Of a stretch of 64,000 bases of DNA, positions 10,244 through 19,748 are shown piece after piece. The notes beneath the pieces were generated by a model. It made no database searches and had not been told where the DNA came from. It saw only the letters and a program-made list of their open reading frames with translations. A program made the position numbers and the translations under genes. Position 1 is the stretch's first letter; each line of letters begins with the position of its first letter. Source of the stretch: an uncultured Chloroflexia bacterium (GTDB taxonomy: Bacteria; Chloroflexota; Limnocylindria; Limnocylindrales; CSP1-4); the NCBI GenBank assembly GCA_963746845.1, contig CAVVCZ010000004.1, forward strand, positions 896,001 through 960,000, read 5' to 3'.

Positions 10244-11560
10244 CTACATCCCCGTCCGGGCCATCCGCCAGATGGCCCGGACCGTCGGCCGCTGGCCGTA
10301 CAGGAGCACGCCGGCCGCGTAGATCCGGGCCGCGATCCACAGTGCGGTCGCGATCGCGACCGCCAGGAGCACGATCGCCAGCATGACCTCGGGCACCGAC
10401 GCCGCACCCGCCGACACGCGGCCCAGGACCATGAATGGACTGACGAACGGGACGAAGGCGAGGAAGGCGATCCAGCCGTCGCGCATGTTCAGGAGACCCG
10501 TCGAAGCATAGACGGCGACGAGATACGCCCCGGTCGAGATGATCGCAAGCGGCATGACGGCCGCCTGGACGTCCTCCTGGCGGCTGACCAACGAACCCGC
10601 GGCCGCGTACAGCACGCCATACAGCAGGAAGCCCAGGACCCCGAACACGCCGAGCAGGAGCAGCAAGCCGAGGGTGAGCCCCGCCGGCAGCGCGGTGCCG
10701 GTGCCCGTCTCGCCCAGGACGGCACTCGCGACCGGGCCCTCGACAAGGAGCGCGATGGCGCCCGCTCCGAGGATGGCCGCGTATTGAGTCAGGGCCACGG
10801 CACCGACGCCGAGAACCTTGCCGCTCAGCAGCTGGAACGGCGTGGTGGCGTTGAGGACGACCTCCATGACCCGCGAGGATTTCTCCTCGACCACGCTCAT
10901 CGCAATCCAGTTCCCGTACAGGATGATGAGCATGAAGATGAGGATCGTGAGGCCGATCCCGAGCAGCCAGTCGGCACCGGTCTGGGCGGCGTCGGGGCCG
11001 GGGCCCGTCCGCGCGGGGTCAGGCCAGCTCACGGTCAGCTGCGCAGGCCGGAACAGGGACGCCGCCTGGCCCGGGTCGACGCCGAGTCGGTCCAGCCGAT
11101 CGGCGATGGCGATCGTCGTGGTCGCCAGGAGCGCCGTCCGGTTGGCCCCGGGGTCGTCGCTGTACAGCGTGAACCGTAGCTCACCGTCGGTCGCGCGGTC
11201 GATCGCCAGGACCGCGGCAAGGCGGCCGTCGACGACGTCCTGCCGGGCGCGGGCCAGGTCCGCTACGCGGGTCACGGTGAAGTCGGTGCCGGCAGCGGAA
11301 TCGGCGGATGCCTGCCCCGTCGGTGCGTTCAGGATGGCCGTGAGCGATGCGACGGGATCCGCGGCCATGTCGCTCGCCGCGACGAAGACCCCGATCTCCT
11401 GGGTCTCGGTCCGGTCGATGTAGCGAGTGATGACCGGCAGCAGCGCCACGGCAACAATCGCCAAGGCGAGGATGACCGTGCCCAGGACGAAGCTCCTGGT
11501 CCGGACCCGGACGACATACTCACGTCGGGCGATGGTGGCGATGGTCGACAGGTTGGTCAT
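10244..11560 (-). CDS. ABC-2 exporter permease (NatB/YhaP-like)
   Basis: IARREY, VVEEKSSRVMEVVL, LLSGKVLG, six TM segments. Confidence 0.9.
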   Translation of the reverse strand: MTNLSTIATIARREYVVRVRTRSFVLGTVILALAIVAVALLPVITRYIDRTETQEIGVFVAASDMAADPVASLTAILNAPTGQASADSAAGTDFTVTRVADLARARQDVVDGRLAAVLAIDRATDGELRFTLYSDDPGANRTALLATTTIAIADRLDRLGVDPGQAASLFRPAQLTVSWPDPARTGPGPDAAQTGADWLLGIGLTILIFMLIILYGNWIAMSVVEEKSSRVMEVVLNATTPFQLLSGKVLGVGAVALTQYAAILGAGAIALLVEGPVASAVLGETGTGTALPAGLTLGLLLLLGVFGVLGFLLYGVLYAAAGSLVSRQEDVQAAVMPLAIISTGAYLVAVYASTGLLNMRDGWIAFLAFVPFVSPFMVLGRVSAGAASVPEVMLAIVLLAVAIATALWIAARIYAAGVLLYGQRPTVRAIWRMARTGM

Positions 11561-12534
11561 GACGGAACCTCGGGCCTCGCCAGGGTCGTCGCTTCCCGCT
11601 CGAGGGCCCCGACCCGTTCCACGAAGACCTCCTCGAGCGACGGATCGGCGACTTCGAACCGCAGCACATCGCCCCCGTGATCGATCGCGGCGTGCAGGAG
11701 CTCCTGGGGATCGCCGCCTGAGTCGACGTTGACCTCGGTGTAGTCCTCGCCCTGGCGGGTCACGACGACGTGCGGGAGCGATCGCAGCCAGGTGAGGTCT
11801 CCGTCACGACTCGTGGCCAGCCGGACCGTCTGCCGCCCCGTCGACCGCTTCACCTCTCGGGTCGGCCCCGCCGTGACGATCGTCCCGTGGTCGATGATCG
11901 CCACGGATTCGCACAGCTCCTCCGCCATGTCGAGCTGATGGGTGCTGAAGACGAGCGTCTTGCCGCGGTCGCGCATCTCGAGGAGCGCGGCCTTGAGGAG
12001 CAGGACGTTGACTGGATCGAGACCGACGAACGGCTCGTCCATCAGGATCACATCAGGGTCGTGGAGCACGGTCGCGATGAACTGGACCTTCTGCTGATTG
12101 CCCTTCGACAGGCTCTCGGCCCGGCGCTCGGCGGCATCGGCGATCCGGAACCGAGCGAGCCAGTCGAGCGCGTCCGAGCGGGCCTTCGACCGGGACACTC
12201 CGTACAGCGAGGCGTAATAGACCAGCTGATCGAGGACGGGCATGCGGAGGTAGAGACCGCGTTCTTCCGGCATGTAGCCCCACGTGCGGCGCGGCCAGCT
12301 CTTCGCTTCCCGATCGTTCCAGGTGACCGTGCCCTCGTCCGCGTGAAGAAACCCCAGCGCGATCCGCATCGTGGTCGTCTTGCCGGCGCCGTTGGCACCG
12401 AGGAATCCGAAGACCTCGCCTTGACGGACTTCGAAGGTCACGCCGTCGAGCGCCTGGACCTCGCCGAACCGCTTGCGCAAGCCGTCGATCTTGAGCACGA
12501 GTCCAGTGTCCGAGGGCGCCACCGGTCCGGACAA
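11557..12534 (-). CDS. ABC exporter ATP-binding subunit (NatA/YhaQ-like)
   Basis: GANGAGKTT, LSKGNQQK, ILMDEPFVGLDP, PSLEEVF. Confidence 0.92.
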   Translation of the reverse strand: MSGPVAPSDTGLVLKIDGLRKRFGEVQALDGVTFEVRQGEVFGFLGANGAGKTTTMRIALGFLHADEGTVTWNDREAKSWPRRTWGYMPEERGLYLRMPVLDQLVYYASLYGVSRSKARSDALDWLARFRIADAAERRAESLSKGNQQKVQFIATVLHDPDVILMDEPFVGLDPVNVLLLKAALLEMRDRGKTLVFSTHQLDMAEELCESVAIIDHGTIVTAGPTREVKRSTGRQTVRLATSRDGDLTWLRSLPHVVVTRQGEDYTEVNVDSGGDPQELLHAAIDHGGDVLRFEVADPSLEEVFVERVGALEREATTLARPEVPS

Positions 12535-12697
12535 GGTCCGTTCGGCCCAATCGCCGAAGCCCGTCGGTCCCGACGTTCCGCTCCGGCCGCGGGCCCAATC
12601 CGGCGCACGCGCGTTGCGACATTCAGGTCGCTGATCCCGAAGACCTCAGCGGTCCGCCGGTGGCTCCGGGGCCACGACTTCTCGATCTACCAACGTT

Positions 12698-12753
12698 TGG
12701 TGCCGGAGGCGAGATTCGAACTCGCAAGGTGTCTCCACCAGCGGTGTTTAAGA
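12698..12753 (-). repeat. att site: duplicated 3' 56 nt of tRNA-Leu(UAA)
   Basis: Matches 15528-15583 with one mismatch; identity ends in the anticodon loop; no 5' half of the tRNA. Confidence 0.92.
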
Positions 12754-12942
12754 GCGGGTTGTTTCAGCTCGGCCCGAGCGACGGTCTAGCTGTCACACGT
12801 AGCCGACGCGCGGAGCGGCGGGTCACTCGGCAGCCCAGACGCTCGCGATCACCTGGCGGTTACGCCCGACCTCGGCGCCGGGGATCGTCGCCCACGTGAT
12901 CAGCCAGGCGGCGAGGCCGTCACCGGGCGGCCCGGCTCGACT

Positions 12943-13979
12943 TCAGGGCTTCCGGACGATGTCGTCGGGGACGTTGTCGAGCACCGAGGCCGCGCCGTTC
13001 AGCGTGAGATGGCCACCGATCCAGAGGAAGACACCGCCCCCCTGGGCAGCCCGGTTGTGATGGACCGAGGCCGAAATCGTTGAGCACGGCGTCGGCCATG
13101 GCGAGCCAGATGCCGCCGCCGCCCTCGGCGACGTCGCTGTCTCCGGTCGCGGTGTTGTCGTGGACCGAGCTCGTGCCGTTGAGGATCAGGGGCCCGGACT
13201 CGCTGACCTCGATGCCGCCGCCGGAGGTTGCGCTGTTGTGATCGACGGAGCTCGCGCCATCGAGCTCGATCGGCTCGGCATGGGTAGCGAAGATGCCGCC
13301 GCCGTCGCCGGTCGTCGTGTTGGCCGTCACGATGCTGTCCCGGAGGGTCACGCCGCCGTCAAAGACGCTGATGCCGCCGCCAGTGTTTCCGATGATCGTC
13401 GATCGGATCAGCATCAGCTTGCCCTGGAACCCGACCCCGACGCCGACGCCAGTGTTGTGGCTTATCGTGGAATCGAGGATCGTCAGCATGGCCAGAGGGT
13501 CCTCGCTGGTGGGCCTGTCCGTCCGAGACCCCGCCGCCACCGTTGTTTCGGATGACATCGCGGACGAGGGTCAGGGAGCCGTGGTTGGTGATCCCGCCAC
13601 CGGGTGTCCCCAGCCCGTTCGCGATGGTCAGGCTCCGGATCGTGACGGTCACGCCCCCCGCAACGGTCACGACCGAGCCGGCCCGTTGGCCGTCGAGGAT
13701 CGGCCGACCGAAGTGGGTACTGCGCATGCCGACGATCGTGAGGTTCTTCGGGATGGTCGTCGTCCCCTGGCAGGTGCCATAGACGAGGAGCGTGTCGCCC
13801 GCCCGGGCGCGATTGACGGCCCACTGGAGGCGGGAGTGCCGCGCCGCGCTGCGGACGTCCACCACCCGACACTTCGGCGTGCTGGCTGACGCCACGGACA
13901 CTGCCGCAGGCACCATGGCGAACGCCAGCGCGCCGGCCAACGCCAGACTCACGCGCACGGCGCGTGGACGGGATGTCAT
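12943..13979 (-). pseudogene. Secreted parallel beta-helix (Pmp/pectin-lyase-like) repeat protein, two frameshifts (~13500, ~13070)
   Basis: GGAG RBS, signal peptide MTSRPRAVRVSLALAGALA...ASA, repeated N-x-x-x-GGGI motifs continuing across three frames; pseudogene or sequencing error. Confidence 0.7.
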
Positions 13980-14158
13980 CTCCTGCCTCCATCGCCTTCC
14001 GGCGAGGCGGTACAGGCCTCGCCCACCCGAACGACCTCCGTCTTCGGGCCCGAATGAGACGCGAGAACCGCCCCATCGTTGCACCTTCACGTCTGAGGAT
14101 CGTCTCGGCCCGCCACGGTGCGGTTGCGGACGCGGTCGCGTCGTGTAGCGTCTGGGCT

Positions 14159-14185
14159 GGTCGCCGAGTACCGGCGCGCGACCCC
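14159..14185 (+). promoter_or_regulatory. Conserved 27-nt structured leader, copy 1
   Basis: GGTCGCCGAGTACCGGCGCGCGACCCC identical to 14874-14900; begins 7 nt after TAGCGT (-10, 14146-14151) with TTGCGG at 14124-14129. Confidence 0.7.
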
Positions 14186-14203
14186 ATCGGAGGAGGTCGC
14201 CCG

Positions 14204-14434
14204 ATGTCTCGACGATCCGCCCGGAACGGATCCACCAGGCACATCGCGCCGGCACGGTGCAGCGCCTCATCGGCGAGGGCGAGCTCCCGGAGCGCGCGGA
14301 GGCGCTGGTGGCTTGCTGGGAGACGTACGCAGCCGCCGACGGTCTCGAGCGCGAACGGGCGGTGGTGGGAGGCGGGCTGGGCGTGGATGCACGCCCAACG
14401 CGCGGAACGTCACGCCGACGTAGCGTCGTTGTAA
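14204..14434 (+). pseudogene. Small unknown protein, paralogue A (two compensating indels)
   Basis: Reconstructed MSRRSxPERIHQAHRAGTVQRLIGEGELPERAEALVACWETYAAADGLERDGRWWEAGWAWM; clear homology to 14920 onwards. Confidence 0.65.
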
Positions 14435-14472
14435 GGTCGAGCGCAAGGTCGTCGCGGCAACATCTGTGGGCC

Positions 14473-14721
14473 ATGTACCAGTCAGGCGTGCATCCCGCGG
14501 TTGCTCGCGATCGTGCCCGACGGGCGATCGCCACCGCTCGGGCGCGCGTGGTCGAGCGGCTCGTTCGCGACGGCATGCCGTCACGGACCGCGGAGCCGCT
14601 GGTGGACGAGTGGCTTCGGAGCACCGACATGCTGGTGGACTTCCGGGCGGCTCCGGACTTCTGGCATCTCGCCTACCAGTTCGCGCTGGAGGAATACCGC
14701 CGCCGGGACACGGCCGGCTAG
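14473..14721 (+). CDS. Small unknown protein, diverged paralogue B (82 aa)
   Basis: ARARVVERLVRDGMPSRTAEPLVDEW...DFWHLAYQF aligns with RAGTVQRLIGEGELPERAEALVACW...RWWEAGWAW. Confidence 0.65.
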   Translation: MYQSGVHPAVARDRARRAIATARARVVERLVRDGMPSRTAEPLVDEWLRSTDMLVDFRAAPDFWHLAYQFALEEYRRRDTAG

Positions 14722-14873
14722 TGTCCGGTCGGAGGACGTAGCACGGCGGGTGGACCGAGTCGTTCGCGCGTCGATCACCCTCCGCTATTCGGGGTAGATA
14801 CGGAGGCGTAACGTTCTCGGCAGCCCCGGAGCGAAGATTTCCCCCCATCTTCGCGCCGCGGGCCTGAGTTCTC

Positions 14874-14900
14874 GGTCGCCGAGTACCGGCGCGCGACCCC
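14874..14900 (+). promoter_or_regulatory. Conserved 27-nt structured leader, copy 2
   Basis: Identical to 14159-14185 and likewise followed by AGGAGGTCGCC. Confidence 0.7.
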
Positions 14901-14919
14901 GTCGTCAGGAGGTCGCCAC

Positions 14920-15462
14920 GTGTCTCGCCCATCGACGCCCGAACCCATCTACCAGGCGCGTCGCGCCGGGACACTCCAGCGCCTGATCGGCGAGGGTGAA
15001 CTGCCGGACCGCGCCGAGCGTCTGGTCGCGCTGTTGGAGGCGGAGACGGCTCGGGACGGCCTCGAGCGGGACGGACGGTATCGACAGGACGATGAACCCG
15101 ACGAACCACAGAAAGATCATCGTGAACGCGATGCCACTGCCGATGGCCGTGCCGGCCTGACAGGCCGCGCGGGTGTTGCCGACCTCCAACCGGCGGCCGC
15201 CAAGAACCTGACCGGTACGTTCGACCACTGGGAACCGGTCGATGACGGTCACGGCCACGCGTACTTCGCGGTCACGAACAACGGTTCGGCTGCCGCCACA
15301 GCTGAATGCACGGTCCAGGTCCGTGACGACTTCGGCGACTTCGGATTCGACTCGCTCGTCGGGGAGACGGTCGAGCCCGGCAAGACGATCACCGGACGCA
15401 TGGCCCTGAGCGTCGGGAAGGGCTCGTTCTTGATCAACAGCGGCTCGGTCACGAACTGCTAA
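14920..15462 (+). CDS. Paralogue C N-terminus (~54 aa) joined to an unrelated beta-rich extracellular-like domain
   Basis: Homology to paralogue A stops at GLERDGRY; C-terminus AYFAVTNNGS...ETVEPGKT...VTNC looks Ig-like. Confidence 0.55.
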   Translation: MSRPSTPEPIYQARRAGTLQRLIGEGELPDRAERLVALLEAETARDGLERDGRYRQDDEPDEPQKDHRERDATADGRAGLTGRAGVADLQPAAAKNLTGTFDHWEPVDDGHGHAYFAVTNNGSAAATAECTVQVRDDFGDFGFDSLVGETVEPGKTITGRMALSVGKGSFLINSGSVTNC

Positions 15463-15527
15463 AGGTCCGATACAGCCACGTGATGTCCGCCAGTGTTCGC
15501 CTGATGATGCCGCGATGCTGCCAATGT

Positions 15528-15614
15528 TGGTGCCGGAGGCGAGATTCGAACTCGCAAGGTGTCACCACCAGCGGTGTTTAAGACCGCCGCGTCTGCCTGT
15601 TCCGCCACTCCGGC
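15528..15614 (-). tRNA. tRNA-Leu(TAA)
   Basis: GCCGGAG...GCGGT-CTTAAAC-ACCGC, long variable arm, GTTCGAAT, CCA end. Confidence 0.96.
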
Positions 15615-15679
15615 CCGGCGATCATCGTAGACGCCGGCCGGCGGCGGTCGGCGACGGCGGCGCATGGCATCCTGACGCC

Positions 15680-16336
15680 GTGTACGTCCCCGATCACTTC
15701 CGCCCGACCGACGACGACGTCCGGCGGCTGCTCGCCAACCTCGACGCGGCGGACCTGATCGCGCCGACCGCGGACGGCCTGCTCGCGACGTTCCTGCCGC
15801 TGATCTTCGAGGCTCCCGGCGCCTCGCCCGAGGCCGGCGAGCACGGTCGCCTGATGGGCCATGTGGCGCGGAACAACCGACAGTGGAAGACGCCCGCGAC
15901 CGGCGAGGCGCTCGTCATCGTCCGCGGCCCGGAGGCGTACATCTCGCCGGCCTGGTACGCCACCAAGCGGGAGCACGGCCGCGTCGTCCCGACCTGGAAC
16001 TACATCACGGCCCATGTCCATGGACGGCTCGTCGTCCACGACGACCGCGACTGGATCGAGCGGAACGTCCGGGCCCTGGTCGACCGGCACGAGGGCACCC
16101 GGCCCGAGCCGTGGTCGGTCGACGACGCGCCGGTCGAGTACATCGAGGGCCAGCTCCGGGCGATCGTCGGCGTCGAGGTCGTGATCAGCCGGATCGAGGC
16201 GAAGGTGAAGCTGAGCCAGAACCGATCGAATGCCGACGTCGAGGGCGCGATCGACGGGCTCGAGGGGGTCGGTGACGCACGCTCCCTGGCGACGGCGGCC
16301 GCGATGCGCGCGACGGAGGACGTCCGGGGCCGCTAG
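15680..16336 (+). CDS. FMN-binding negative transcriptional regulator (PaiB family)
   Basis: MYVPDHF, GHVARNN, AYISPAWY, VPTWNY, KLSQNR. Confidence 0.92.
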   Translation: MYVPDHFRPTDDDVRRLLANLDAADLIAPTADGLLATFLPLIFEAPGASPEAGEHGRLMGHVARNNRQWKTPATGEALVIVRGPEAYISPAWYATKREHGRVVPTWNYITAHVHGRLVVHDDRDWIERNVRALVDRHEGTRPEPWSVDDAPVEYIEGQLRAIVGVEVVISRIEAKVKLSQNRSNADVEGAIDGLEGVGDARSLATAAAMRATEDVRGR

Positions 16337-16758
16337 GACCGTTCGAGCGCGATCACGGGGAGCTCCCGGTGGGTCATCGTCTCGTATCGTGCGAAGACGG
16401 GCAGGGCGGCCTTGTGCGCCGCCCAGAGCCGCTCTCGCTCCGCGCCGGACGTGATCCGGGCGAGCGCCGGGAACGTCTCGGTCCCGACCTCGACGACGAC
16501 ATGGGGATCAGCGCGGATGTTGGCCACCCAGGCCGGATCGTGGGCGTGGCCGCTGTTGGATCCGACGACGACCCAGCGGTCGGCATCGCTGGTGTAGCCG
16601 AGCGGCGTCACGCGTGGCTCACCGGACCGGGCCCCGGTCGTGGTGAGAAGCAGCACGTTCGCACCCTTGAGCGGTCCCTGGGTGATCTCTCCGTCATGAG
16701 CCCGGAAGTCCGCCAGGTGGGTCTCGTTCCAGTCGACTTCGGACGCGGGGATCGGCAT
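16333..16758 (-). CDS. Deazaflavin (F420)-dependent nitroreductase/quinone reductase family protein
   Basis: LLLTTTGARSGEPRVTPL, P.W..N..A.P, YE..T.RELPV. Confidence 0.88.
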   Translation of the reverse strand: MPIPASEVDWNETHLADFRAHDGEITQGPLKGANVLLLTTTGARSGEPRVTPLGYTSDADRWVVVGSNSGHAHDPAWVANIRADPHVVVEVGTETFPALARITSGAERERLWAAHKAALPVFARYETMTHRELPVIALERS

Positions 16759-16821
16759 CCCGTGATGCTACCAGTGTCCGTTGCCCGAGCAACGATCCGT
16801 GCCGAGCCGGCGCCGGGCTGC

Positions 16822-18639
16822 TCACCGGTCCTGGCTGAGGATCACCACCGAATACGGCCCGAGGCCCACGGCGATCCGCTGCGCCATGCCGTCGTGCTCG
16901 ACCGGCTCGCTGTCGGCATCGAGCGAGTCGATCGTCTCGAAGTCCGGGTCGTAGCCGTCCCAATCGCTGTTGAACCGGACTCGCCAGCGGCCGGCCCGCG
17001 GCACCCCGACGTGGTAGGCCGGGTAGGCGTTCGCGGAGAAGCTCGCCAGGACGATCACGTCGTCGCGCGGCCCGCCGTCCAGCCAGCGGTGCCAGCCGAG
17101 GACCTTCGCGTCCTCGTTCACGTGATGGACCTGGACGTGCTCCCCGCGCAGGCCCCGCGACACGTCCGCGGTGTTGCGGCGCAATGCGATCAGGTCCCGG
17201 TGGAGACGGAGCAGGCCCGCATGGCGATGGCGGAGCGACCAGTCGAGCCCGTCCTCGTCGTTGAACCACGAGCCCTCGACGACCTCCTGGCCCTGGAAGA
17301 GCATCGGGATCCCGGGGCTCGTCAGGACGATCGCGCCGCCGAGGGTCGACCGCTTCTTCGATGCCCAGGAGTCGGCGTAGCCGGGCCAGATCTCCTCGGG
17401 CACGCGAGCCTGGCCGTTCGCATCCTCGTCGTGCGACTCCGTGTAGATCAGCCGCCGGAACCCCTCCCCCGCCCCGTCGGAGATCACGGTGGCAACGGAC
17501 GCGATGTCGCGGTGGGCGTCATCGGAGGCGATCAGGGCCGTCCGGATGTAGTGGACGAAGGCACCGTCCCACTGCGACCCGAACCCCGCGCCTCCCTCCT
17601 TGGACGAGGTCACGATCGCGAGGTCCTCGCGGAGATCCTCGGCGATGGTCAGCCGGCCCGGGAACCGCTGAGCGATCTCCGCGTTGACGTCCGCCATGAA
17701 CCGCCAGCCGTCCGCGATCCGGTCGGAACCGCGGTTGCCGGAGCCGGTGATGCTGGAGATCCAGGCCGTCGCGTCCCAGCGCAGCCCGTCGATCCGGAAC
17801 TCCTCGAGCCATTGGATCGCGCTGTCCCGGAGGAAGGCCCGGACCTCGGCCCGGCCGTAGTCGGGCCGCGTGTCGCCCCACGGCGTGGTCGATCGGCCGT
17901 CCTCGTAGAAGTAGATCCCGCCCTTCCCGGCCTCCGACCAGCCGTCGAACTGCCAGATGTCCAGGTCCGATGGACCGAGGTGGTTGTAGACGACGTCGAG
18001 GATCACCGCGATCCCGGCGGCGTGTGCGTCGCGAACGAGGGCCTTGAGATCGTCAGGAGCGCCATACGTGCTCTCGACCGCGAACGGGTAAGCGGTGTTG
18101 TAGCCCCACGAGCGGTCGCCGGCGAACTCGAACGGCGGCATCAGCTGGATCGCCCCGACCCCGAGCTCGCGCAGGTACGGCAGCCGGCGCCGGACGCCGT
18201 CGAGCGTGCCCGGGCGTCCGTGCACGCCCTCGCTGAACGTCCCGACGTGAAGCTCGTAGATGACCAGGTCGTTCCAGGGCGGCTGGTGGAACTCGGCGTC
18301 GCCCCAGTCGAATGCGGCCGGGTCGTAGACGATCGCGTTGCCGACGGAGTTCGTGAGCCGCCGGGCTCGCGGATCGATCCGGTTGCGCTCGCCGGCCGGG
18401 GTCTGGAGGACGAACCGGTACTCGTCGCCGGCCCGGGCGTCGGCCACCTCGGTCGACCAGGTCTCGGCGGTCCCGTCGGCGTCGCGCGTGAGCGGATTCC
18501 GAGCGGCATCCCAGTCGTTGAACGTGCCCACGACGGCGACCGCCGTCGCGTGCGGCGCCCACACCCGGAAGGTCGTCCCGCCGTCGTGCGGGAGCGCGCC
18601 CATGCCGGCCCGCGGCGAGGCCCGGACGCGCGGCCTCAC
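16822..18639 (-). CDS. GH13 alpha-amylase family enzyme with CBM48 (glucan branching/TreZ-like)
   Basis: FRVWAPHA, IYELHVGTF, ILDVVYNH, DGLRWDA, IAED, ESHDE; GTG overlaps upstream stop. Confidence 0.9.
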   Translation of the reverse strand: MRPRVRASPRAGMGALPHDGGTTFRVWAPHATAVAVVGTFNDWDAARNPLTRDADGTAETWSTEVADARAGDEYRFVLQTPAGERNRIDPRARRLTNSVGNAIVYDPAAFDWGDAEFHQPPWNDLVIYELHVGTFSEGVHGRPGTLDGVRRRLPYLRELGVGAIQLMPPFEFAGDRSWGYNTAYPFAVESTYGAPDDLKALVRDAHAAGIAVILDVVYNHLGPSDLDIWQFDGWSEAGKGGIYFYEDGRSTTPWGDTRPDYGRAEVRAFLRDSAIQWLEEFRIDGLRWDATAWISSITGSGNRGSDRIADGWRFMADVNAEIAQRFPGRLTIAEDLREDLAIVTSSKEGGAGFGSQWDGAFVHYIRTALIASDDAHRDIASVATVISDGAGEGFRRLIYTESHDEDANGQARVPEEIWPGYADSWASKKRSTLGGAIVLTSPGIPMLFQGQEVVEGSWFNDEDGLDWSLRHRHAGLLRLHRDLIALRRNTADVSRGLRGEHVQVHHVNEDAKVLGWHRWLDGGPRDDVIVLASFSANAYPAYHVGVPRAGRWRVRFNSDWDGYDPDFETIDSLDADSEPVEHDGMAQRIAVGLGPYSVVILSQDR

Positions 18640-19333: not shown

Positions 19334-19410
19334 TGGAGGCGACGACCGGATTCGAACCGGTGAGTAGGGGTTTTGCAGACCCCCGTGTTGAACCACTTCA
19401 CCACGTCGCC
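19334..19410 (-). tRNA. tRNA-Cys(GCA)
   Basis: GGGGT-CTGCAAA-ACCCC anticodon arm, U73, CCA. Confidence 0.96.
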
Positions 19411-19448
19411 CCTGGGCGGCCGATGGACGGCCATGGGCTGGATCAATC

Positions 19449-19522
19449 TGGCTGCCCCTCGAGGATTCGAACCTCGGTTCACGGATCCAAAGTCCGCTGT
19501 CCTACCACTAGACGAAGGGGCA
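19449..19522 (-). tRNA. tRNA-Gln(TTG)
   Basis: GCGGA-CTTTGGA-TCCGT anticodon arm, GTTCGAATCC, CCA. Confidence 0.96.
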
Positions 19523-19569
19523 GCGGGCGGTGTCCTCGAGCGGCTCCCGGCGCATCCCGGGCAGGAAAA

Positions 19570-19645
19570 TGGAGCGGAAGACGGGACTCGAACCCGCGAC
19601 CCTCACCTTGGCAAGGTGATGCTCTACCAACTGAGCCACTTCCGC
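19570..19645 (-). tRNA. tRNA-Gly(GCC)
   Basis: TCACC-TTGCCAA-GGTGA anticodon arm, CCA. Confidence 0.97.
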
Positions 19646-19672
19646 TCGATGACGCGACCACCGCCTGGGCGA

Positions 19673-19748
19673 TGGTGCCGAGAGCCAGGATCGAACTGGC
19701 GACACCGCGATTTTCAGTCGCGTGCTCTACCAACTGAGCTATCTCGGC
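19673..19748 (-). tRNA. tRNA-Phe(GAA)
   Basis: CGCGA-CTGAAAA-TCGCG anticodon arm, CCA. Confidence 0.97.

Follow-up and report, generated by a model that had tools for sequence, protein, structure and literature searches.

A conserved, probable 5' leader predicted to mask its own ribosome-binding site, and the small-protein family that it precedes, in an island of a Chloroflexota bacterium

In RNA thermometers of the ROSE and fourU kinds, a hairpin with an internal mismatch or bulge folds over the ribosome-binding site. Here we describe a conserved stretch of ~45 nt that occurs twice in 64,000 nucleotides of DNA from an uncultured Chloroflexia bacterium (contig CAVVCZ010000004.1, positions 896,001 to 960,000; this whole stretch is called the window, and coordinates count from its first letter), each time ahead of a gene copy from an unnamed small-protein family. 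The stretch is probably a leader, that is, part of a 5' untranslated region (UTR), and its predicted folds hide the ribosome-binding site. The predicted hairpin is like the thermometers in that the A of GGAGG faces a C. Unlike them, its helix is G+C-rich, its opening is predicted to cost 3.4–16 kcal/mol, far above a heat-labile stem, and the leader has neither a U-rich anti-Shine-Dalgarno (anti-SD) segment nor a match in Rfam.

In action, the leader may be likened to the type I toxin mRNAs aapA1, dinQ, and timP, whose 5' UTRs are reported to sequester the ribosome-binding site (PMC6733600, PMC5066626, PMC13000454). The likeness lies in an upstream anti-SD that pairs with the ribosome-binding site and in competing 5' pairing that gives mutually exclusive folds; in several leader copies studied here, the first codons are a further predicted partner of the 5' end. 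The analogy stops at the features that define those systems, the hydrophobic toxin and the antisense RNA. Here the product is a hydrophilic 67-amino-acid (aa) protein rather than a membrane peptide, most relatives have no leader, no promoter-like site for an antisense RNA gene was found, and there was no evidence of 5' processing.

The setting recalls islands and integrative elements that target tRNA genes, since the module is bounded on one side by a tRNA gene and on the other by a direct repeat of that gene's 3' part, and since a sister island at tRNA-Lys retains a tyrosine-integrase fragment. It differs from them in that the island in the window has no integrase match, has four of its five genes broken, and has the same composition as its surroundings. 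For the protein, the only likeness to known families or structures is to a generic three-helix bundle. The leader had no match in Rfam and the protein none in the family libraries searched, a comparison that did not extend to the literature on either.

The leader, its copies and its types

The initial annotation of the window drew attention to 27 nt of identical non-coding DNA at 14159 and 14874. A mismatch search and 100 dinucleotide shuffles confirmed the repeat: GGTCGCCGAGTACCGGCGCGCGACCCC lies on the + strand at exactly two window positions (14159–14185 and 14874–14900), no further match with up to 3 mismatches was found in the window, none of the 100 shuffles gave a match, and the chance expectation was 0. 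As annotated, both 27-mers are followed by AGGAGGTCGCC and then a start codon (ATG at 14204 for copy 1, GTG at 14920 for copy 2), and copy 1 is preceded by the arrangement TTGCGG (14124)-N16-TAGCGT (14146–14151)-7 nt-GGTCGCC. The elements are laid out as follows.

14124 to 14151, + strand: promoter-like TTGCGG-N16-TAGCGT; the putative -10 fits TANNNT and lies 7 nt 5' of the leader
14159 to 14203, + strand: leader copy 1, with the 5' arm GGTCGC at 14159–14164
14163–14166 with 14172–14175, + strand: predicted hairpin P1 (GCCG/CGGC) of leader copy 1
14178 to 14200, + strand: putative anti-SD GCGACCCC (14178–14185), loop (14186–14191), and Shine-Dalgarno sequence with its flank, GGAGGTCGC (14192–14200), of leader copy 1
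14874 to 14919, + strand: leader copy 2, with anti-SD (14893–14900), loop (14901–14907), and Shine-Dalgarno sequence with flank, GGAGGTCGC (14908–14916)

Most likely, the 27-mer forms part of a ~45- to ~50-nt leader that resembles a 5' UTR and that ends in a ribosome-binding site of canonical sequence, GGAGG, 7 nt upstream of the start codon. The distance from the 27-mer to the start codon varies by 1–2 nt among the copies, which argues that the leader is non-coding. A coding role, either as an N-terminal extension or as an antisense open reading frame (ORF) on the - strand ('DGVARRYSAT'), was ruled out because the copies are set apart by indels whose lengths are not divisible by three. Relatives with the leader have a TANNNT hexamer 6–7 nt before its 'CAC'+GG; because of this position, we infer that transcription starts a few bases past a TANNNT -10, at the beginning of the conserved stretch. 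A consensus scan for promoters over 13900–15600 on both strands returned no promoter-like (sigma-70-type) site.

The genome holds six copies of the ~45-nt leader, all on contig C4, as found by blastn and again by a covariance model of our own. Those beyond the window lie at C4:604782, C4:299406, C4:298629, and C4:300409. Every copy either precedes a gene of the family or is orphaned at an island junction. Two stand before intact genes, P0003 with 67 codons and P0001 with 66 (for example, MSRRSTPERIYQAHRAGTLQRLIGEGESPERAEALMAGWELQAARDGLERDGRYWEAGWAWMLASWR). The copy at C4:298629 is damaged by a TGA stop and indels, and at C4:300409 the leader has no gene and breaks off no more than 20 nt from a 45-nt repeat of the tRNA-Lys 3' end. 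A search for related loci gave 1 in genome contigs and 7 in metagenome contigs. The 24 leader instances analyzed below are 25 regular-expression matches minus L049 and L050, which do not precede a family gene, plus the 604-kb copy.

These leaders fall into types that differ in how the region around the ribosome-binding site could pair. In type A (this genome, genome G016, three metagenome contigs, and one metagenome-assembled genome, which is labeled 'uncultured Chloroflexia' and carries a near-identical leader), GCGACCCC stands opposite GGAGGUCGC. In type C (G017 and G042), GACCUCC or GAGGACCUCC stands opposite GGAGGUC(CUC), and in L008, GGACC stands opposite GGUCC. In types B and E and in L097, the predicted partner of the site's flank (GGUACUCG, CUCCG) is the 5' motif itself, (C)GAGUACC or CGGAG.

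Conservation was measured on 11 type A copies (55 pairs) from two genomes and three metagenome contigs. Mean identity over the UTR is 84%, with 86 and 94% in the two arms and 74% in the predicted loop, its least conserved part. Codon positions 1, 2, and 3 of the same copies are 87, 86, and 61% identical. By this measure, conservation of the UTR matches that of codon positions 1 and 2 and far exceeds that of position 3.

The leader is not a general feature of the family. Absence of the leader from homologs had been set out as a result that would count against the initial annotation, and among 46 family genes with a defined start (L082, L098, and L058 were dropped for want of a usable one), 33 lacked the leader signature. 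The signature, a GGAGG site with the upstream motif G[TC][AG]CCGG, was present at 13 starts. A further 15 looked leaderless, with TANNNT 5–8 nt before the start codon and no ribosome-binding site, and 18 were assigned to neither class, many of them with a near -10 at the same place. Because 33 of the 46 starts lack the signature and 15 look leaderless, the leader appears to be a derived feature of one sub-lineage.

Two observations on these upstream regions stand by themselves. Most relatives have no ribosome-binding site and carry TANNNT 5–8 nt before the start codon (seen in L024, L077, L085, L090–L096, L011–L018, and others), with a conserved (T)AGCTGTCAC / ACCTGTCAC motif ~11 nt upstream of it. 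In addition, the leader's AGUACCG is exactly complementary to CGGUACU, which encodes the Arg-Tyr-Trp of DGRYW (codons ~52–54), in 6 of the 11 type A copies (among those with this complement are L001 d299, L004, L030, and L034–L036); a match of 7 nt is roughly what a 50-nt leader and a 200-nt gene would share by chance. An ECF41-type promoter was also considered. The ECF41 promoter is described as a -35 of TGTCACA followed by N16 and CGTC (PMC3426412). The (T)AGCTGTCAC / ACCTGTCAC motif resembles this -35, and many of the family genes are preceded by a TGTCAC-like -35; the candidate was rejected because neither the spacing nor the -10 agrees with that promoter. AGCTG[TA]CAC showed no enrichment in genome G000 (17 occurrences, against 19 for the reversed control).

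Predicted masking of the ribosome-binding site

Each of the 13 leaders tested has a minimum free energy (MFE) fold in which the ribosome-binding site is masked. Forcing the site and 4 nt beside it open costs a predicted 3.4–14.3 kcal/mol when the RNA runs from the UTR to the AUG, and 4.1–16.0 kcal/mol when 15 nt of coding sequence are added. Compared with 400 GGAGG-bearing starts of long ORFs with high third-position G+C in the same genome, 17 of the 24 leaders rank no higher than the 7th percentile for accessibility over the site and 4 nt. The leaders of other types (B, E, L097, and L008) mask the same site through different partners, and the spacing between the arms varies (11–16 nt and 6–8 nt) within limits that a hairpin would tolerate. 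In a model-guided alignment of 28 instances, which was fitted to the structure and consists of related sequences so that its figures favor the structure, 96.0% of 325 cells pair, and the covariation score is 0.145 against 0.096 ± 0.007 for shuffles, none of 500 of which reached it. In this alignment, the masking helix has two basal pairs that are altered on both sides, in three sequences each (6 cells); in L048, for example, GGUC-GC/GC-GACC becomes GGUC-CUC/GAG-GACC. The claim of the initial annotation that the non-coding stretch behaves like a functional leader with a GCGACC arm that can mask the ribosome-binding site agrees with folding, conservation, and the covariation in that alignment.

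The account that we find the most economical, and regard as moderately probable, is that this 5' UTR lowers translation by folding over its own ribosome-binding site. In the RNA, a small 5' hairpin (GCCG-loop-CGGC) would form, and a second hairpin would pair GCGACCCC with GGAGGUCGC; with the ribosome-binding site occluded in the most stable fold, translation would be low by default. Before the site is transcribed, the 5' GGUCGC might pair with GCGACC and so permit brief translation on nascent transcripts. Alternatively, a factor of some kind might open the masking hairpin and allow translation.

The initial annotation had proposed that GCGACC alternates between these two partners, the 5' GGTCGC and the GGTCGC that overlaps the ribosome-binding site. 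The masking half of that proposal agrees with the predicted folds, whereas the alternative 5' pairing (the GGUCGC:GCGACC helix) appears only in type A, and there only when the site is forced open. A genuine two-state switch gained no support, the masked fold being favored by 3.4–14.3 kcal/mol in the 13 leaders tested. The 5' pairing is weakened in L007, L033, L048, and d299, weakened or lost in type C and L008, and absent in types B, E, and L097. A switch of this kind is possible for type A but is not conserved, and it would amount at best to a kinetic window on nascent RNA.

Apart from the favor that a structure-fitted alignment of related sequences lends to its own figures, several results weigh against masking as the function of the leader. 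The remaining 7 of the 24 leaders (types B, L008, and L035) lie at the 11th–46th percentile of accessibility. In a plain MAFFT alignment of 18 sequences, only one pair (2 cells) is changed on both sides, and RNAalifold on 11 whole mRNAs gave -17 kcal/mol with a covariation term of +0.66, that is, no support. Z-scores against dinucleotide shuffles are negative for all 24 leaders but range only from -0.3 to -3.2, and the total MFE falls between the 5th and 70th percentiles of ordinary gene starts. Stability and covariation of the leader are, in sum, modest. A matrix of cognate and non-cognate duplexes is not diagonal, because the G+C-rich flanks pair with any leader; a leader pairs with a foreign site as well as with its own. 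A search of 11000–18000 on both strands with Rfam 15 (E ≤ 1) matched the tRNA alone. Several leaders precede dead genes, and both the start site and the leader itself are read from sequence patterns. Lastly, the GAGUACCGG motif is kept across all leader types while its pairing partner changes. Such constancy points to sequence-specific recognition rather than to pure structure; pairing alone would not explain it, and GAGUACCGG appears to be the best lead to a trans-acting partner.

Some of these results suit accounts in which masking plays little or no part. The stretch could be the 5' UTR of a duplicated gene without dedicated regulation, its copies alike through recent copying or gene conversion and its pairing a product of chance at 71% G+C beside a strong GGAGG site. 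Modest z-scores, an ordinary MFE, and a duplex matrix that is not diagonal are what such an origin would give; the copies do sit in duplicated island modules, several of their genes are pseudogenes, and 21% of ordinary GGAGG sites in the genome are equally paired over the 5-nt site. We nevertheless consider this unlikely, for the UTR is 84% identical against 61% at codon position 3 over 55 pairs that include another genome and metagenome contigs, identity is lowest in the predicted loop (74%), one and the same site is occluded in leaders of every type, and two pairs show compensatory changes. A double-stranded DNA operator, at which a repressor (possibly the small protein itself) blocks transcription, would read the same letters in another way: three GGTCGC/GCGACC half-sites and GAGTACCGG just past the start, with the RNA pairing a by-product of inverted repeats. 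Roadblock repressors typically sit at +1 to +45, which is where the stretch would lie. The conservation is at the level of sequence, the arms are nearly invariant among type A copies, GAGTACCGG is kept in all leader types regardless of pairing, the N-terminus and first helix of the protein are basic, and the thermodynamic and covariation support for the RNA is modest. Four observations make an operator quite unlikely, in our judgment. The spacing of the arms varies by 5 nt in one interval and by at least 2 nt in the other, which would hardly suit a dimer bound to half-sites at set positions; the 'half-site' counted as the third always coincides with the flank of the ribosome-binding site, and in L048 it has changed along with its partner; types B, E, and L097 lack the triple repeat, yet their site flank is paired; and the fold search gave no DNA-binding fold beyond generic three-helix matches.

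The leader might instead serve mainly to shield the mRNA 5' end from 5'-end-dependent RNases, with masking of the site secondary and with GCCG-loop-CGGC or GGUCGC:GCGACC, at the very 5' end, as the shielding stem-loop. Hairpins at the 5' end can stabilize mRNAs, and P1 falls within the first ~20 nt of the putative transcript, with 95–97% of its cells paired and one-sided (G-U) changes only. Because shielding leaves unexplained why, whatever the leader type, the site flank finds its complement farther upstream, and because the start site is placed by inference, we hold it to be very unlikely. Least credible of all is the suggestion of the initial annotation that the locus is a type I toxin-antitoxin-like module or one controlled by an antisense RNA. 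Site sequestration with alternative 5' pairings silences several type I toxin mRNAs, according to the reports on them (PMC6733600, PMC5066626, PMC13000454), and the genes here are likewise multicopy, island-borne, and often decayed. The 67-aa product is, however, hydrophilic (grand average of hydropathy, GRAVY, -0.8 to -1.4), with three predicted helices and no hydrophobic segment; the scan of both strands over 13900–15600 offered no promoter for an antisense RNA; 33 of 46 starts among the relatives lack the leader signature; and PADLOC gave no meaningful match. Neither toxin nor antisense control is upheld by these results.

Beyond masking as such, a broader interpretation would make the 'GAGUACCGG leader' a new, lineage-specific class of cis-regulatory RNA that is autoregulated by the small protein and travels with island DNA in a soil lineage. 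Under it, an ancestrally leaderless gene would have gained the leader between its leaderless-type promoter and its start codon and would now be gated by a masked ribosome-binding site, and GAGUACCGG would be the binding site of a trans-acting factor, most simply the three-helix protein, closing an autoregulatory protein-RNA circuit. We regard this chain of events as rather improbable.

The small-protein family and its copies in the window

The genes behind the leader encode ~67-aa proteins. As the initial annotation had proposed, they belong to an unrecognized family: homologs were found, and Pfam and NCBIfam gave no assignment. A word-indexed search returned 27 close homologs, all metagenomic and none usefully named, and a full search with a hidden Markov model returned 513 cluster representatives (50% identity) at E ≤ 0.001, 96 of them at E ≤ 1e-10. 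The family is present in 20 of 41 genomes of closely related species, in 83 of 401 genomes (16 of 49 genera) of its own bacterial family, and in 3 of 401 genomes drawn phylum-wide; the first two of these counts take in the unpublished genomes G010 and G515, on which no conclusion rests. Its distribution is patchy, lineage-specific, and often multicopy within one bacterial family, and several genomes carry 5 to 16 matches, many with stops.

Among 54 members, one matched Pfam (E 0.0092) and none matched NCBIfam. The best E value in PHROGs was 0.046 among 6 proteins, PADLOC gave two families with one member each (E 7.1e-4 and 5.4e-3) and nothing meaningful, the PDB searched by sequence gave 0.62 at best, the ESM Atlas had no usable match, and Foldseek against PDB and BFVD found nothing at E ≤ 0.001. 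An AlphaFold2 (AF2) model with a mean predicted local distance difference test (pLDDT) score of 82.8 has three helices (residues 7–24, 29–46, and 52–66). Its best structural match by VIA-align is a DnaD-domain protein (2i5u_A, Z 7.2, root-mean-square deviation 2.7, 62 residues aligned), a Z of 7 being in the range that the tool rates as common for helical models, and the matches are generic three-helix ones. The protein is hydrophilic (GRAVY from -0.83 for P0003 to -1.43 for P0001) and lacks a hydrophobic segment. Because its N-terminus and first helix are basic and its third helix is Trp-rich, our best guess is that it may be a small regulatory or nucleic-acid-binding factor of island DNA. 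Twelve longer proteins with the domain were scanned, and one matched Pfam (SLFN_AlbA_2, probably in a chimeric ORF).

We also noted that a gene of the sigma-70 family of the extracytoplasmic function (ECF) type adjoins a family member or leader at five loci in three genera (L001 8470–9051, beside the orphan leader; L052 3511–4092; L006 623–1174; L074 2572–3126; L090 2143–2709). In L001 it is followed by an overlapping 344-aa ORF. These neighbors may be a lead to a regulon, or may be there by chance.

Three genes of the family lie in the window.

14204 to 14434, + strand: copy 1, a pseudogene in which a 76-codon ORF remains open
14473 to 14721, + strand: middle paralog M, intact, 82 aa, a distant family member without a leader of the 27-mer kind
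14920 to 15081, + strand: copy 2, truncated to 54 codons, ending ...LERDGRY

The paralog between the two copies, with the residue pattern quoted for it, is as the initial annotation described (RARVVERLVRDGMPSRTAEPLVDEW). A profile of the family from which this paralog had been left out matched it (hhalign 92.9%, E 3.7e-7), and it is 83% identical to an 82-aa ortholog in G016; a search with it returned 17 proteins at E ≤ 0.001, which include M itself and one paralog from the same genome. Of the three genes, M alone is intact. Relative to intact members, copy 1 has a net -1 indel near 14218–14221 and a +1 insertion near 14354–14355, such that its N- and C-termini lie in the ATG frame and its homologous middle part (14221–14354) lies in another. 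In copy 2, homology is lost past ~15081 and the open frame runs on through unrelated DNA to 15462. The coding parts of the two copies have diverged, as had been noted, but not merely at synonymous sites (73% identity over 134 nt). An independently assembled short contig from a public soil run (X1) spans 14100–14408 with 2 substitutions and no gaps, and contigs from two further public soil runs (X3 and X4) span 15001–15200 with no differences. Because these independent contigs agree, the frameshifts and the truncation junction are not assembly errors; the lesions in copies 1 and 2 are real, with the caveat that X1 is possibly the source sample of the record. For annotation, this means that the ORFs at 14204–14434 and 14920–15462 would be called as genes, yet are open-frame artefacts in G+C-rich DNA.

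The tRNA-Leu island and wider bearing

The family genes lie between a tRNA gene and a partial copy of it.

15528 to 15614, - strand: tRNA-Leu(taa), its 3' end towards the island; near boundary
12697 to 12756, no strand assigned: direct repeat of 60 nt, a 97% copy of the 3' part of tRNA-Leu; far boundary, att-like
12920 to 13981, - strand: gene for a secreted right-handed beta-helix protein, a pseudogene in two frames, divergent from copy 1 (Beta_helix, E 3.1e-8)
15092 to 15462, + strand: remnant of an unrelated gene in two frames, with an N-terminal MNPTNHRKIIVNAMPLPMAVPA in one frame and a C-terminal 103 aa in another

The boundary repeats (12697–12756 and 15527–15586) agree over 60 nt at 97%, or over 56 nt at 98% by blastn, and the interval 12757–15527 reads as a 2.8-kb genomic island in decay beside tRNA-Leu. 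One module lies in it, consisting of copy A (copy 1), paralog M, and copy A' (copy 2), and four of the five protein-coding genes delimited in it are broken. Both halves of the beta-helix pseudogene match a single 425-aa protein whose gene stands divergently beside a family gene in L095. That L095 gene (81–1355, - strand) comes from another genus, and the N-terminal halves are 38% identical (E 5e-12). The remnant at 15092–15462 had no match to the family, and its 15151–15459 part none in Pfam; its N-terminus, MNPTNHRKIIVNAMPLPMAVPA, is possibly signal-like, and the - strand offers an alternative ORF of 117 aa (14905–15258) that includes a hydrophobic stretch. No integrase was matched in the window translations scanned (12923–13982, 14204–14718, and 14920–15459), a genome-wide search with PF00589 found none near C4:908–911 kb, and near the family clusters in G000, G016, and G004 there were none, only Xer-like genes and fragments lying elsewhere. 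Base composition of the island did not differ from that of its surroundings.

Elsewhere in the genome, a sister module (A, M', A') lies within a 4.9-kb island that runs from tRNA-Lys(ctt) to a copy of its 3' end (C4:295407–300343, L001; a 45-nt repeat at 93%, 4.9 kb away) and that contains a 123-aa tyrosine-integrase fragment. A smaller island at tRNA-Pro(ggg) (C4:600840–602701, L002) ends in a 48-nt repeat at 92%, 1.8 kb away, and the intact copy at 604 kb lies 1.9 kb past it. In G016, family clusters lie downstream of tRNA-Pro and in the region syntenic with the tRNA-Lys neighborhood.

A repeat of ~44 nt, GCGACGGTCTAGCTGTCACACGTAGCCGACGCGCGGAGCGGCGG, lies at 12779–12822, 23 nt inside the island boundary. 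At 89–98% identity, it recurs at seven places in a 20-kb variable region of G016 (L052), at one place apiece in L053 and L054, and at two close to the tRNA-Lys island (C4:302895–302934 and C4:302195–302222), and it includes a TAGCTGTCAC motif that is also found upstream of many family genes. Farther along the window, four tRNA genes (Cys, Gln, Gly, and Phe) form a cluster at 19334–19748 on the - strand.

The interest of the locus is moderate, lowered as it is by the decay of the window copies and by the modest structural statistics. If masking by the leader is real, it would add a candidate RNA leader absent from Rfam and, with it, a sizeable unnamed small-protein family (513 representatives of clusters at 50% identity), both in a high-G+C soil lineage of which little is known. 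Leaderless-looking starts and starts gated at the ribosome-binding site could then be compared within a single family, which would bear on how modes of translation initiation evolve.

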